IMG/VR virus record: IMGVR_UViG_2541047719_000002
Span: 1 to 43,543 of that record
DNA length: 43,543 nt
Reading direction: 5' to 3' (one strand)
Source: a virus
Taxonomy: Duplodnaviria > Heunggongvirae > Uroviricota > Caudoviricetes
Positions 1 to 20,280 of the stretch are shown piece after piece. The position numbers and the translations under genes are program-made. Under the pieces are notes generated by a model. It was given only the letters and a program-made list of their open reading frames with translations, was not told the origin of the DNA and searched no databases. Numbering within the stretch: the first letter of the stretch is position 1; the number at the start of each line of letters is the position of its first letter.

Positions 1-1284
1 CTACTTCTTCGCCTCTGCAACCACTTTGCTACCCACGCCGCGGTTATTGTATTCCCACATGCGGTTGTAGTTAGTGTCATTCAGATTGCGCTGTACTTCG
101 TCGTTATCATCAACGCTGCCGGTGTTACCCGCAAATGGACGATTAGAGATCACCGCATCAGCCCACGGTTTGGCTGTGTTAAAACCTTCGTTGATGGCGC
201 TATCACGGATCACTACCTGACCGTTGGTATTGGCATCAACATCCAGCGAGCGGCCCAGTTGCGCCACGCCATCACCGGAAGCATTGAAACGGCTGTTTAC
301 GGCGAGGAAACCGTAGTAAATGTTGGACAGCGTAGCCGGTGCAAACACATACGCTTCTTGCTGGGTACGGGAGTTCACCACGCGGAATTCGGTGTTATCG
401 AACACCACTGCGCCGCGACCAGAAACGATATCCACATCCCCTTCAATATAGCTGTTGGTCACCAGCGTACGCGGCTGACGATTCGTTTCCAGACGGTTCT
501 GCACACCGCTGTTGGTGACAAAGAAGGTGTTCTGACGACCGAGAATGTTGACGTTATTGATCTGCACTTTGTCGCCATCAGTACGCAGTGCCACCGCCGG
601 ATGGTTACCCGCATCTACGCTATCGCCCAGCGTGTTTTCGATGGTCAGGTTTTGCAGTTGCAGGCCATTGTTTTGTGACCAGAAGACCGCAGAGCAGAGA
701 ACACCGATACTGTCGCTGCGTTTACTCTGGCAGCTATCGTACATATACCACGCCGGTTTACCTGGCATATATTTGCCGCGCGGGTTGACGTCGTGACGCC
801 AGTCGGCAGGGCTCATGCCACCATCAAGGGAAAGCCCAATCTTCACATCAATCGGTTTTTCACCTGTACCGTATAGAGTAATTCCACCCGGAGCGGCAGG
901 GACATACACCGTTCCCTGATACTCACCAGGCATCACGGCAATATACTGGCGCTTGTTGGTACGCTTGATAATTGCCGCATCTACCGCCGCCTGAATCGTG
1001 GTATGCGTTACACCTTGAGTACCCGCCGGGCCGACAACAAAGTCAGGTTGCGCAGGCAGGGTAATCGGGGAAGGATTCCACGCTGCCGCACCTGGTGTCA
1101 GGGATGCAAAATAGTGTTGAGCATCGAAATTCTGCGCTTCTTTTGCCGACAGAATCGGGCGAGAAGAGGTACCAGGCGCGGTTTGATCAGAAGGACGTTG
1201 ATCGGGCGGTGTTGAGCTACAGGCGGTCAGCGTCACGCCAAAAGCCAATGTCAGCGCCAGACGGGAAACTGAAAATGTGTTCAC
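1..1284 (-). CDS. ybhC: YbhC, pectinesterase-like outer-membrane lipoprotein (host gene flanking attB-lambda)
   Basis: 427-aa ORF with signal peptide and lipobox (LTACSS), recalled as E. coli YbhC; GTG start at 1282-1284; ends immediately left of the att core. Confidence 0.85.
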   Translation of the reverse strand: MNTFSVSRLALTLAFGVTLTACSSTPPDQRPSDQTAPGTSSRPILSAKEAQNFDAQHYFASLTPGAAAWNPSPITLPAQPDFVVGPAGTQGVTHTTIQAAVDAAIIKRTNKRQYIAVMPGEYQGTVYVPAAPGGITLYGTGEKPIDVKIGLSLDGGMSPADWRHDVNPRGKYMPGKPAWYMYDSCQSKRSDSIGVLCSAVFWSQNNGLQLQNLTIENTLGDSVDAGNHPAVALRTDGDKVQINNVNILGRQNTFFVTNSGVQNRLETNRQPRTLVTNSYIEGDVDIVSGRGAVVFDNTEFRVVNSRTQQEAYVFAPATLSNIYYGFLAVNSRFNASGDGVAQLGRSLDVDANTNGQVVIRDSAINEGFNTAKPWADAVISNRPFAGNTGSVDDNDEVQRNLNDTNYNRMWEYNNRGVGSKVVAEAKK

Positions 1285-6694: not shown

Positions 6695-6991
6695 TCAGTC
6701 ATTACTGATAGCGCCATAGCGTGAGCGGTAATTACGCAGGCGCGGGTCGATATATTCAGGGAAGTGGGTATATGTGGCTTTGCGGAATGGTCGGATTGAT
6801 GTCTGGTAAATTCGCTCGCGTTCTTCTTTCTCTGCAAGCCATATACAGTGGCGAAATTCCTTTTCCTCTTTCGTTTCCTGCGGTAGCGACATTATCCGGT
6901 TGTAGTTTTTCCTGAATTTATCCAGCACCTCCGATACGGAATTGCCGGAACAGCGGCGCGCGTCATCCGCACCATACAGAGGCGCTGGCAT
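6695..6991 (-). CDS. Hypothetical protein
   Basis: 98-aa ORF, ATG start. Confidence 0.45.
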
Positions 6992-8744: not shown

Positions 8745-9257
8745 TTATTTGCTCCTGTAGAATTCGCCGTGATGCTTTCTGGCAAAGTCGCAGTAAGCTT
8801 TTTTGGCATCTTCTAATTCATTAAAGTACCCTAGATGTTTTTTCTTTCCGTTTAATTTACCATAGGCAGCCCACTTTCTACTTTCCTTCTTCCATGTGAC
8901 TCCTTTGCAACCTGATTTGTTGAGGGTGTTTATTTTACTATTCATTGAATTCTGTGAGTAAGTTGCAAGCCTCAGATTGCAAATTCTGTTATCTGTCTTA
9001 ATGCCATTTATATGGTCGATAATACCTTCAGGCTCAACACCGAAAGTGATAATCCATGCAAGTCTATGTGCAGCATAGTGTCTTCCGTTAATGAAAATCC
9101 TTAAGTAGCCGCTTGTTGTTATTGTTCCGGCAGTTCCACCTATCTTCCTTGCTCCATAAGATTTTAGCCATGTGAACTCACCAGAAATAGGGTTATATTT
9201 GACAACATTATTAATCTCACTTAGGGAAATTAATTCAAGAATCTTTATAAATGCCAT
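8745..9257 (-). CDS. HNH homing endonuclease with AP2-like DNA-binding domain (copy 1)
   Basis: HNH_3-type motif (HRLAW...IDHINGIKTDNRICNLR) plus C-terminal AP2-like segment (GVTW...KWAAYGK...LGYF); start set at ATG 9255-9257; AT-rich gene. Confidence 0.8.
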   Translation of the reverse strand: MAFIKILELISLSEINNVVKYNPISGEFTWLKSYGARKIGGTAGTITTSGYLRIFINGRHYAAHRLAWIITFGVEPEGIIDHINGIKTDNRICNLRLATYSQNSMNSKINTLNKSGCKGVTWKKESRKWAAYGKLNGKKKHLGYFNELEDAKKAYCDFARKHHGEFYRSK

Positions 9258-16924: not shown

Positions 16925-17102
16925 CCCATCCCAATCCATTCAATACCAGAAAGAAAGCGTCGAGCGAGCTTTAACGTGCGCTAACTGCGGTAAGAAGCTG
17001 CGTGTGCTGGAAGTTCACGTGTGTGAGCGTTGTATATATGAATGCTTAAATATGGTGGAACATAATGAGAAATATAAGCAACATAGACGAATTAAGAAAT
17101 AA
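16917..17102 (+). pseudogene. ninF: ninF 5' fragment (NinF residues 1-39 fused to a 22-codon out-of-context tail), interrupted by HNH gene insertion
   Basis: [39 protein letters not shown] matches recalled lambda NinF up to codon 39 (17033); sequence diverges from 17034. Confidence 0.6.
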
Positions 17103-17571
17103 ATTATCATATGATGATGTTTTAGGTGTACTTAGATGGAAAGTGTCTCCTTCTAATAATGTTAAGGTTGGCAGTGTTGCTGGTTACATTAGGAGTGATG
17201 GTTATAGGATGTTAACTATCGATGGTGTAATTACTTATGCTCACCACGTTATATGGATGATAAATAATGGTGAGATTCCATTAGGGTATAAAATTGATCA
17301 TATAAATGGAGTAAGGTCAGATAATAGGCTATCTAATCTTCGATTGGTTACACACCAACAGAATGCACAGAACCAAAAGAGAAAAATAACCAATTCGTCA
17401 GGAGTGACTGGAGTATATTTCAATAAAGAGAGATGTAAGTGGATTGCGAATATATGCGTAGATGGGCGCACCAAATATCTTGGAATATTTGCTAGCATCA
17501 TTGACGCTATTGCAGAAAGGAAGAGGGCAGAAAAAGAACTGGGTTTTCATGAAAACCATGGTAGACCATAA
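17065..17571 (+). CDS. HNH homing endonuclease with AP2-like domain (copy 3), inserted within ninF
   Basis: 168-aa ORF, ATG with RBS; HNH_3 motif (HHVIWMINNGEIPLGYKIDHINGVRSDNRLSNLR) and AP2-like C-terminus (GVTGVYF...LGIF...LGFHENHGRP); AT-rich. Confidence 0.85.
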   Translation: MRNISNIDELRNKLSYDDVLGVLRWKVSPSNNVKVGSVAGYIRSDGYRMLTIDGVITYAHHVIWMINNGEIPLGYKIDHINGVRSDNRLSNLRLVTHQQNAQNQKRKITNSSGVTGVYFNKERCKWIANICVDGRTKYLGIFASIIDAIAERKRAEKELGFHENHGRP

Positions 17572-18479: not shown

Positions 18480-18664
18480 ACGCCACAATTCAAACAATAC
18501 CAGAGCTACTTATCCAGACACGAGGCAATCAGACCGAAGTGGCGAGGATGCTTTCCTGCGCAAGAGGAACAGTGCTCAAGTACAACCGAGACAGCAAAGG
18601 CGAGCGTCACGTAATAGTTAACGGCGTCCTGATGGTCAAACAGGGCAAGAGGGGAAGACCATGA
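18476..18664 (+). CDS. ninH: NinH-like protein
   Basis: 62-aa ORF similar to recalled lambda NinH (…GNQTEVARMLSCARGTVLKY…). Confidence 0.75.
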   Translation: MNATIQTIPELLIQTRGNQTEVARMLSCARGTVLKYNRDSKGERHVIVNGVLMVKQGKRGRP

Positions 18665-19284
18665 GACTCGAAAGCGTAGCTAAATTTCACTCGCCAAAAA
18701 GCCCGATGATGAGCGACTCACCACGGGCTACGGCTTCTGACTCTCTTTCCGGTACTGATGTGATGGCTGCTATGGGGATGGCGCAATCACAAGCCGGATT
18801 CGGAATGGCTGCATTCTGCGGTAAGCATGAACTCAGCCAGAACGACAAACAAAAGGCTATCAACTACCTGATGCAATTTGCACACAAGGTATCGGGGAAA
18901 TACCGTGGCGTGGCAAAGCTTGAAGGAAATACTAAGGCAAAGGTACTGCAAGTGCTCGCAACATTCGCTTATGCGGATTATTGCCGTAGTGCCGCGACGC
19001 CGGGCGCAAGATGCAGAGATTGCCACGGTACAGGCCGTGCGGTTGATATAGCAAAAACAGAGCAGTGGGGGAGAGTTGTTGAGAAAGAGTGCGGAAGATG
19101 CAAAGGTGTCGGCTATTCAAGAATGCCAGCAAGCGCCGCATATCGCGCTGTAACGATGCTAATCCCAAACCTTACCCAACCCACCTGGTCACGAACTGTT
19201 AAGCCGCTGTATGACGCTCTGGTGGTGCAATGCCACAAGGAAGAGTCAATCGCAGACAACATTTTGAACGCGGTCACACGTTAG
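18661..19284 (+). CDS. Q: Late-gene antiterminator Q (lambda Q)
   Basis: 207-aa ORF recalled as essentially identical to lambda Q (MRLESVAKFHSPKSPMMSDSPRATASDSLSGTDVMAAMGMAQSQ...). Confidence 0.95.
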   Translation: MRLESVAKFHSPKSPMMSDSPRATASDSLSGTDVMAAMGMAQSQAGFGMAAFCGKHELSQNDKQKAINYLMQFAHKVSGKYRGVAKLEGNTKAKVLQVLATFAYADYCRSAATPGARCRDCHGTGRAVDIAKTEQWGRVVEKECGRCKGVGYSRMPASAAYRAVTMLIPNLTQPTWSRTVKPLYDALVVQCHKEESIADNILNAVTR

Positions 19285-19326: not shown

Positions 19327-19355
19327 TTGACTTTTTGAATAAAGTTGGGTAAATT
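19327..19355 (+). promoter_or_regulatory. Late promoter PR' (TTGACT -35, TAAATT -10) with overlapping qut site
   Basis: TTGACT at 19327-19332, 17-bp spacer, TAAATT at 19350-19355; sequence matches recalled lambda PR' region. Confidence 0.7.
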
Positions 19356-19498
19356 TGACCCAACGATGGGTTAATTCGCTCGTTGTGGTAGTGAGATAAA
19401 AAGAGGCGGCGCTTACTACCGATTCTGCCTAGTTGGTCACTTCGACGTATCGTCTGGAACTCCAACCATCGCAGGCTGAGAGGTCTGCAAAATGCAAT

Positions 19499-19554
19499 CC
19501 CGAAACAGTTCGCAGGTAATAGTTAGAGCCTGCACAACGGTTTCGGGATTTTTT
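19499..19554 (+). terminator. tR' intrinsic terminator (3' end of the short 6S late leader transcript)
   Basis: Stem CCCGAAAC...GGTTTCGGG followed by TTTTTT (19549-19554); matches recalled lambda tR'. Confidence 0.7.
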
Positions 19555-19558
19555 ATTT

Positions 19559-19633
19559 GGGTCAGTCGTATAAAGGTAATCACGGAAGGCTGTTAACCTT
19601 CTTATCGTGGTTCGAGTCCACGCTGTCCCGCCA
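19559..19633 (+). tRNA. tRNA-Asn-like (anticodon GUU), atypical, possibly degenerate
   Basis: Anticodon stem GAAGG/CCTTC with loop CTGTTAA; T-arm CGTGG-TTCGAGT-CCACG; discriminator G and encoded CCA; acceptor stem 6/7 with a U-U mismatch; D-arm pairs poorly. Confidence 0.45.
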
Positions 19634-19638
19634 AACAT

Positions 19639-19714
19639 GCTGGTTTAGCTCCAATGGTAGAGCAGTCGCCTTGTAAGCGAATGGGTAGCGGTTCAAGTCC
19701 GTTAACCAGCACCA
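19639..19714 (+). tRNA. tRNA-Thr (anticodon UGU)
   Basis: 76-nt cloverleaf folded by hand: perfect 7-bp acceptor stem GCTGGTT/AACCAGC, D-arm GCTC-CAATGGTA-GAGC, anticodon loop CTTGTAA, T-arm AGCGG-TTCAAGT-CCGTT, encoded CCA. Confidence 0.75.
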
Positions 19715-19956
19715 TAACTGAGCCGTAGCCACTGGCTATCCTGAATTCATCAGTGATAGTTATGCTGCGGCCTTCTACACATGATCTTCGTGAAAGCGGG
19801 TGGCAAGAGGTCGCGCTAACAACCTCCTGCCGTTTTGCCCGTGCATATCGGTCACGAACAAATCTGATTACTAAACACAGTAGCCTGGATTTGTTCTATC
19901 AGTAATCGACCTTATTCCTAATTAAATAGAGCAAATCCCCTTATTGGGGGTAAGAC

Positions 19957-20280
19957 ATGAAGATGCCAGAAAAACATGACCTGTTAGCCGCCATTCTCGC
20001 GGCAAAGGAACAAGGCATCGGGGCAATCCTTGCGTTTGCAATGGCGTACCTTCGCGGCAGATATAATGGCGGTGCGTTTACAAAAACAGTAATCGACGCA
20101 ACGATGTGCGCCATTATCGCCTGGTTCATTCGTGACCTTCTCGACTTCGCCGGACTAAGTAGCAATCTCGCTTATATAACGAGCGTGTTCATCGGCTACA
20201 TCGGTACTGACTCGATTGGTTCGCTTATCAAACGCTTCGCTGCTAAAAAAGCCGGAGTAGAAGATGGTGGAAATCAATAA
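19957..20280 (+). CDS. S: Holin/antiholin S (lambda S107/S105 dual start)
   Basis: 107-aa ORF starting [22 protein letters not shown]..., recalled as lambda S; Met1 and Met3 dual-start motif present. Confidence 0.95.

Follow-up and report, generated by a model that had tools for sequence, protein, structure and literature searches.

Positions 19559-19633 of the window, by which we mean the whole 43,543-nucleotide stretch of the IMG/VR virus record IMGVR_UViG_2541047719_000002, carry a genuine tRNA-Asn(GUU) gene on the plus strand. The gene opens a small mobile cassette in the leader of the phage late operon, shared by numerous lambdoid and P22-like phages, and on balance we favour the view that it acts with a partner, tRNA-Thr(UGU), to replace host tRNAs destroyed by defence nucleases. 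The gene as such is already known, being annotated in Sf6, phage 21, SfI, Kapi1 and hundreds of E. coli prophages. Two of its three non-standard pairs, U4·U69 and U13·U22, are conserved traits of the family, tolerated or selected, and the third, A12·C23, is a rare derived change that, judged from the sequence, probably weakens the window copy.

The tRNA-Asn gene and its fold

ARAGORN calls tRNA-Asn(gtt) at 19559-19633 (+) with the CCA included, and a search of the whole window with Rfam RF00005 matches 19559-19630 over the full model (1-71 of 71) at 49.8 bits (E = 7.6e-8), against a gathering score of 29 bits, so that the tRNA status of the element comes from the covariance model. The covariance-model alignment marks three pairs as non-standard, 4-69 (U·U) in the acceptor stem together with 12-23 (A·C) and 13-22 (U·U) in the D-stem, where two of the four pairs, G10-C25 and U11-A24, are standard. 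The anticodon stem (GAAGG/CCUUC) and T-stem (CGUGG/CCACG) are regular, as are the anticodon loop CUGUUAA, the T-loop UUCGAGU, the discriminator G and the encoded CCA. All conserved tRNA nucleotides are in place (U8/A14, A15/U48, G18G19, U33, A37, the T-loop UUCGA and U54-A58). The identity elements of E. coli tRNA-Asn are G34, U35, U36 and the discriminator G73, and all four elements for asparaginyl-tRNA synthetase (AsnRS) occur in the phage gene, the same at the sequence level as in the host tRNA.

A preliminary description, made from the letters alone, had placed a tRNA-Asn-like element at exactly these coordinates, with a U-U mismatch at acceptor pair 4-69, a D-arm pairing at two of four positions, and a well-formed anticodon arm, T-arm, discriminator and CCA resembling those of E. 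coli tRNA-Asn; each of these points is borne out, the anticodon loop, T-loop and discriminator being those of the host tRNA. It had proposed covariance-model scoring as a check and held that a canonical alternative fold would speak against it. The model offers no canonical alternative fold for 19559-19633, and thus the irregular pairing stands, well outside what chance would give.

Constraint and covariation across the family

We compared the window copy with 117 further IMG/VR copies, retrieved with a pattern that placed no constraint on the acceptor and D arms, and with a second sample anchored only on tRNA-Thr. The consensus allele, that of Sf6 and phage 21 (C20, U23), is carried by 102 of the 117; its D-stem combines G10-C25, U11-A24 and A12-U23 with U13·U22, and it scores 55.3 bits. 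For the full set of 118 copies, which comprises 108 distinct segments, nucleotide diversity amounts to 0.004 in tRNA-Asn, 0.058 in tRNA-Thr and 0.16-0.39 in the flanks; the retrieval pattern fixed 29 of the 75 tRNA-Asn positions, and the 46 free positions alone give about 0.0065. The Thr-anchored sample shows the same picture. The signature of a pseudogene, relaxed constraint with flank-like diversity, is thus absent from this set of copies.

More distant relatives found by blastn include the tRNA-Asn of Klebsiella phage Mulock (88% identity), which stands at the same genomic position in an Asn-Phe-Thr-Arg cassette, and those of T4-like, Stephanstirmvirinae and jumbo phages (~79-84% over the core). 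In a gap-free alignment of seven relatives, 93.2% of the cells of the cloverleaf are paired and 10 of the 21 pairs have changed on both sides; none of 500 shuffles reaches the observed values, and slid controls are 36-47% paired. Pair counts were taken from a position-anchored table and from the gap-free alignment, and a MAFFT alignment, which placed the variable-loop gap inside the T-stem, was left unused.

The same comparison shows how the two odd pairs are distributed. U13·U22 occurs in six of the seven close-core relatives, with C-G in FBKp34 and in a second allele described below. At 4-69 the lambdoid forms have U·U, whereas WFK, pEa47 and FBKp34 have U·G and PSTRCR127 has C-G; rare variants among the IMG/VR copies are G4 (one copy), G69 (one copy) and C69 (three copies). 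U4·U69 is retained by three diverged forms, one of them Mulock, which keeps it while pairs 6-67, 7-66 and 28-42 have been compensated. The T4-like (Mosigvirus, Gualtarvirus), Stephanstirmvirinae and jumbo (Eneladusvirus) tRNA-Asn genes share the D-arm GUAU-AAAGGUyA-UUAC with U13·U22, the 4-nt variable loop UUAU and A15/U48, their 79-84% identity extending at most over positions 7-65; they differ in having acceptor stems with U4·G69 or C4-G69 and in lying in large tRNA clusters rather than after a late terminator.

The second allele, allele 2, occupies the same slot in four IMG/VR contigs (L258, L259, L262 and L264) and in Enterobacter and Klebsiella temperate phages; Enterobacter phage BHUENT6 (L287, 701-775) is an example. 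It differs entirely from the main allele in D-stem, anticodon stem, variable loop and T-stem, with perfect pairing, and has the identical acceptor stem (GGGUCAG/CUGUCCC, with U4·U69) despite different flanks. The Levitt pair covaries, being A15/U48 in the main allele and G15/C48 in allele 2. One allele 2 copy, that of Klebsiella phage 2b LV-2017 (L286, 701-775), carries C69 (U4·C69) and a C56-to-A change in the otherwise invariant T-loop; this copy looks genuinely degenerating, unlike the window gene.

An acceptor mismatch was also placed against a background of about 120 unrelated viral tRNA-Asn genes, collected by a GUU-anticodon pattern. Among 77 well-parsed genes, about 11 show one or two acceptor pairs of non-standard type, a rough count in which 14 of 91 genes with at least three apparent mismatches were treated as mis-registered; a single acceptor mismatch is therefore uncommon in phage tRNAs, not exotic.

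Taken as a family, the tRNA-Asn is conserved and covarying and is not a decaying pseudogene. The preliminary description had left the choice between a decaying pseudogene and a functional but atypical phage tRNA. Near-invariance, covariation, and the intact identity and tertiary nucleotides speak for the functional alternative at the level of the family, and decay does not account for U4·U69 and U13·U22, which are conserved; the pseudogene view is fair for one detail of the window copy, its rare derived A12·C23.

A rare allele in the window copy

The window copy departs from the consensus at 19578 (C to A, position 20) and 19581 (U to C, position 23). This allele is absent from the 117 IMG/VR copies, from 58 phage records with the gene (best matches differ at two positions) and from 368 E. 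coli genomes with the gene (best matches differ at one or two positions). E. coli AR_0118 carries A20 alone, so that A20, itself rare, came first and C23 was added to it. When the exact allele was sought in a targeted scan, IMG/VR contig L285 was the one further match, and a metagenome collection gave none. L285 is a different mosaic prophage, with 98.1% identity and 30 mismatches over a shared 1.6 kb, a different spacer between its tRNAs and divergence farther upstream. A sequencing error at C23 was considered and is ruled out by this second occurrence; the allele is thus real, inherited or transferred, though rare, and not a fresh lesion. In the pair table, A12-U23 is kept in the consensus, allele 2, Mulock, WFK, pEa47, FBKp34, PSTRCR127 and the host tRNA, and A12·C23 is confined to the window. 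Because C23 breaks a pair kept in all other relatives examined, the window copy may be weakened.

A two-tRNA cassette in the late leader

The window derives from a mosaic E. coli P22-like phage or prophage, closest to Kapi1, CUS-3 and phiv205-1, and encodes a P22 coat protein and a tailspike with the P22 head-binding domain. Its tRNA-Asn starts one base past the T-tract of the late leader terminator tR' (Table 1), and the Asn(GUU)+Thr(UGU) cassette, lying right after tR' and between Q and the holin gene, has the arrangement annotated in Sf6 and phage 21. An equivalent terminator is annotated directly before tRNA-Asn in both of those phages. Over the leader and hairpin through the six-T run (19480-19557) there is one mismatch to lambda, and in lambda about 160 bp of unrelated sequence then replaces both tRNAs, the junctions being sharp and lying at the T-tract and at AACTGAGCCGTAGCC. 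Unrelated sequence exactly in the place of the cassette marks the two tRNAs as a discrete mosaic module. We also considered whether lambda holds a degraded tRNA copy, given that the same 601 bases recur over a similar length; this was rejected, since the 160 bp in lambda bear no relation to the tRNAs and ARAGORN calls no tRNA in them.

Table 1. Features of the late-operon leader in the window.
Feature	Position	Strand	Basis
Q late antiterminator, 207-aa ORF	18661..19284	+	Pfam Antiterm on identical proteins; aligns with lambda Q
PR'-type late promoter, TTGACT-17-TAAATT	19327..19355	+	Promoter scan; 96-98% identity to the late-promoter region of lambda and HK446
tR' leader terminator, hairpin CCCGAAAC...GUUUCGGG then AUUUUUUAUUU	19499..19558	+	Read from sequence; ends one base before tRNA position 1
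tRNA-Asn(GUU), encoded CCA; rare allele A20/C23 with family traits U4·U69 and U13·U22	19559..19633	+	ARAGORN, Rfam, variant survey, pair table, covariation
Intergenic 5-nt spacer AACAT; about half of the copies have AATAT	19634..19638	+	Sequence, copy survey
tRNA-Thr(UGU), encoded CCA	19639..19714	+	ARAGORN (TGT); Rfam 61.5 bits; 76/76 identical to phage 21 tRNA-Thr ('tRNA-Thr21')
Holin S, first protein-coding gene of the late operon past the cassette	19957..20280	+	ORF; lambda-family holin annotated in homologous loci

Apart from PR', nothing resembling a promoter turned up in the scan upstream of the tRNAs. In a transcriptome study of the close relative Kapi1, antisense signal is reported to be clear opposite the tRNAs, and it is also seen between the tRNAs and the holin gene of BTP1 (PMC12922286); a simple scan of 19715-19956, from tRNA-Thr to holin S, gave no minus-strand promoter.

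The pair of tRNA-Asn and tRNA-Thr is annotated in Sf6 (as 'similar to phage 21'), phage 21, SfI, Kapi1, mEp506, SPN9CC, BTP1 and RefSeq E. coli prophages. Of 5426 complete E. coli genomes, 368 have a match to the 75-nt gene, as do 58 phage records. The late-leader tRNA cassette has been described for SfI (PMC3636060) and phage L (PMC8022706); P22 itself lacks tRNAs, and some P22-like phages have them at the same place (PMC8022706). Phages 21, Sf6, SfI, ST64T and PS3 have the pair in the same slot, after tR' and between Q and holin, with the same two anticodons. Against Sf6 and phage 21, the window tRNA-Asn is 73/75 identical, differing by A for C at position 20 in the D-loop and C for U at position 23 in the D-stem.

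The composition of the array after the late terminator varies (Asn-Thr, Asn-Arg, Asn-Gly-Thr, Asn-Phe-Thr-Arg and Arg-Gly-Thr; L267 1501-1820 from Mulock, L286 701-857, L287 701-935 and L261), and Asn-Leu is reported for phage L; tRNA-Asn is usually the first in the array. Genes for endonucleases also visit the slot: an HNH_3/AP2 gene lies inside the Q-holin interval in L282 (2249-2587), and in E. coli JNE131328 one lies within the same matched region as the tRNAs, which is reminiscent of the HNH genes interspersed among the tRNA genes of T5. Two short contigs with the same phage tRNA (L244 and L246) are binned with Segatella copri and Collinsella sp. metagenome-assembled genomes and are probably mis-binned E. 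coli phage contigs. Shiga toxin (Stx) phages such as 933W carry the ileZ-argN-argO tRNA genes upstream of stx, just past the Q-dependent late promoter and terminator; their tRNA identities and downstream cargo differ from those of the Asn-Thr cassette, and the likeness considered here is one of position.

Host tRNA-Asn and the contact sites of defence nucleases

The host tRNA-Asn sequence is found at 100% identity in 5425 of 5426 E. coli genomes, with a median of four identical genes per genome. Compared with this host tRNA (asnT/U/V/W), the phage tRNA-Asn has an identical anticodon loop, T-loop and G73, and its stems differ except at G10-C25, U11-A24, G30-C40, U51-A63, G52-C62 and G53-C61; in the host tRNA the acceptor stem and D-stem pair throughout, the variable loop has 5 nt, and G15/C48 is present.

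Some of these differences fall on sites reported, in two papers from 2025, as contacts of nucleases that cut host tRNAs. P2-OLD is lethal because it cleaves host tRNA-Thr(UGU) in the anticodon stem, and it also cuts tRNAs that combine A37 with a paired CNG at 28-30/40-42; northern blots tracked the cleavage of three further tRNAs alongside tRNA-ThrU, host tRNA-Asn(GUU) among them (PMC12445682). The PARIS nuclease AriB, whose recognition involves the U36-A-A-U39 context and the D-loop U16, has host tRNA-Asn(GUU) as a secondary but biologically relevant target (PMC12409363). With tRNA-Lys set aside, the reported host targets of the two nucleases include exactly the Asn(GUU) and Thr(UGU) tRNAs. 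At positions 28-30/40-42, the OLD motif, the host tRNA-Asn reads CGG/CCG and the phage tRNA-Asn AAG/CUU, without a CNG; at the AriB site (36-41), the host has UAAUC|C and the phage UAACC|U, with C39 for U39; and in the D-loop the host has U16, whereas the phage has AAAGGUAA, with A16 and no U before G18.

The tRNA-Thr of phage 21 protects against P2-OLD, resists cleavage and decodes ACA in vivo (PMC12445682), and the window tRNA-Thr is identical to this protective tRNA. In its anticodon stem G27·A43 is mismatched and CNG is absent (UCG/CGA); its AriB site is UAAGC|G. Ten of the 117 IMG/VR copies have a minority tRNA-Thr(UGU) allele; in its two commonest variants (nine copies), whose anticodon arms were compared, the 5' strand ACUGA is host-like and the 3' strand is UCAUC, so that the stem is shorter and lacks the 3' CNG, resembling the 'shorter anticodon stem' route to OLD resistance of other phage tRNA-Thr genes.

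The known rescue tRNAs, tRNA-Thr21 against P2-OLD and the Lys, Thr and Asn tRNAs of T5, which together rescue from AriB (PMC12409363), share with the phage tRNA-Asn the anticodon of a host target and altered anticodon-stem sites, and the phage tRNA-Asn is physically linked to a validated rescue tRNA of the tRNA-Thr21 type. The T5 tRNA-Asn is only distantly related to that of the window, with a different anticodon stem and loop, and the settings differ, the window gene lying in the late operon of a temperate phage and the T5 tRNAs having, as annotated, dedicated tRNA promoters. Neither of the two nuclease papers mentions the lambdoid tRNA-Asn (PMC12445682, PMC12409363). The window also encodes Abc2, a P22-type anti-RecBCD protein (6695-6991, minus strand; Pfam PF11043, 201.5 bits); inhibitors of RecBCD are triggers of P2-OLD, and Abc2 is a candidate trigger.

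From these elements a course of events can be proposed. The cassette would be transcribed from PR' only upon antitermination by Q, late in lytic growth. The tRNA-Asn would be cut from the long late transcript by host RNase P at its 5' end and by host 3' processing, the CCA being encoded, would be charged by host AsnRS through G34-U35-U36 and G73, and would decode AAC and AAU in late proteins. The pair would thereby stand in for host tRNAs destroyed by the defence nucleases of competing mobile elements, and ordinary codon supply may add to the value of the cassette, strongly for ACA and weakly for Asn. Expression, processing, charging and nuclease resistance of the tRNA-Asn, like the effect of C23, are points that we infer from the sequence.

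A more ambitious version holds that the whole Asn(GUU)+Thr(UGU) cassette serves, through both of its tRNAs, to counter Toprim tRNA nucleases (P2-OLD and PARIS AriB), its 'atypical' features being escape changes and not decay. The candidate escape changes would be the D-loop without a uridine before G18G19, C39, the anticodon stem without a CNG pair and, perhaps, U4·U69. We offer this version tentatively, as an attractive possibility that falls somewhat short of being probable.

Weighing the readings

Several observations weigh against a working rescue tRNA in the window. Within the cassette family, the Mulock tRNA-Asn has regained CAG/CUG at 28-30/40-42 and allele 2 has a CGG/CCG pair shifted by one position, so the absence of the OLD motif is not universal; at the AriB site the tRNA-Asn of PSTRCR127 is a further counter-example, with host-like UAAUC|C. 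A suppressor screen of 245 coliphage tRNAs against P2-OLD, in a library for which the presence of the lambdoid tRNA-Asn is not established, enriched only Thr(UGU) (PMC12445682), which argues that tRNA-Asn alone does not rescue. Ten loci with a Q protein identical to that of the window have zero tRNAs in the slot, which is thus variable, and since many phages with the identical Q lack tRNAs, the cassette is dispensable. The phage L paper leaves open whether late-leader tRNAs are excised from the late mRNA (PMC8022706). As for the window copy itself, C23 costs it 5.5 bits of covariance score against the consensus, and the minimum free energy (MFE) structure that ViennaRNA predicts for it is a misfold at -24.2 kcal/mol, where the D-arm 3' side (AAUCACG) is paired to the T-stem 5' strand (CGUGGUU); the cloverleaf, evaluated at -16.7 kcal/mol, is less stable by 7.5 kcal/mol.

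These last figures, together with the broken A12-U23 pair and the scarcity of the allele, give some weight to the view that the family is functional and the window copy a non-functional or failing gene on its way to a pseudogene. The MFE structure of the consensus allele is cloverleaf-like (-21.6 kcal/mol), and the competing helix of the window allele is strengthened by both of its private changes, A20 and C23. Free-energy predictions are unreliable for tRNAs, however: the authentic E. coli tRNA-Asn, run as a control, also has a non-cloverleaf MFE structure (-24.5 against -23.3 kcal/mol), and the predicted misfold is therefore weak evidence. An A·C apposition can form a protonated wobble pair, all other conserved tRNA nucleotides are intact, and the same allele recurs in the diverged prophage L285, all of which counts against a failing copy; we judge it improbable. 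Less probable still is the idea that the tRNA fold matters chiefly for RNA processing, with RNase P cutting at position 1 to free the late mRNA from the terminator leader and decoding secondary. The start of tRNA-Asn immediately past the T-tract and its usual first place in cassettes of differing composition would suit such a role, but the conservation of its anticodon loop, G73, T-loop and tertiary-pair nucleotides far exceeds the needs of a processing signal, its partner decodes ACA in vivo (PMC12445682), and lambda and many phages with the same Q manage without any tRNA in the slot.

The strongest competitor to nuclease rescue is pure codon supply, in which the tRNA-Asn raises the level of Asn-tRNA for Asn-rich, AAC-biased late proteins and has no link to defence. 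Asn makes up 48 per 1000 codons in the ORFs of the window and 6.6-8.5% of several tail-region ORFs, AAC accounts for 15 of the 18 Asn codons in the coat gene, and the phage L paper argues likewise from AAC at 24 of 25 in its own coat gene (PMC8022706). The ACA codon of the partner is enriched as well, at 16-17 per 1000 codons in the window and 25 of 44 Thr codons in the tailspike, and SfI has 17.3 ACA per 1000 against 7.1 in its host (PMC3636060). For Asn, on the other hand, the multiple identical host genes imply that decoding is not limited by a rare tRNA, and codon supply leaves unexplained why phage and host differ in the anticodon stem, at position 39 and in the D-loop, precisely at the reported nuclease contact sites. 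Codon supply is credible for the tRNA-Thr partner and weak for Asn, and as the whole explanation of the cassette we consider it unlikely, if less so than a failing copy.

Other features of the window

A sar antisense RNA, a regulator of the P22 immI region, lies at 38357-38423 on the minus strand (Rfam RF00262, 71.6 bits) and marks the window as P22-like with a secondary immunity region. The abc2 gene adjoins an SSB gene and a gene for a Rad52/Erf-type recombinase. Two HNH_3 endonuclease genes are present, at 8745-9257 (-) and 17065-17571 (+), the former with an AP2 match that falls below threshold (29.2 bits; cut-off 33.3). A partial ORF at 1-933 (-), running off the window start, has 10.3% Asn and a match to the Pectinesterase (beta-helix) family.

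Concluding remarks

Comparison across the family separates the apparent 'defects' of a single sequence into conserved traits (U4·U69 and U13·U22) and one rare lesion (A12·C23), and this is in our view the right way to judge atypical phage tRNAs. The SfI paper of 2013 called the role of tRNA-Asn unclear (PMC3636060); if the cassette is indeed a two-part countermeasure, this would answer the question of why such phages carry a tRNA-Asn for which codon usage gives no rationale. The tRNA-Asn of the late leader thus becomes a specific candidate for the missing part of lambdoid resistance to OLD and PARIS.

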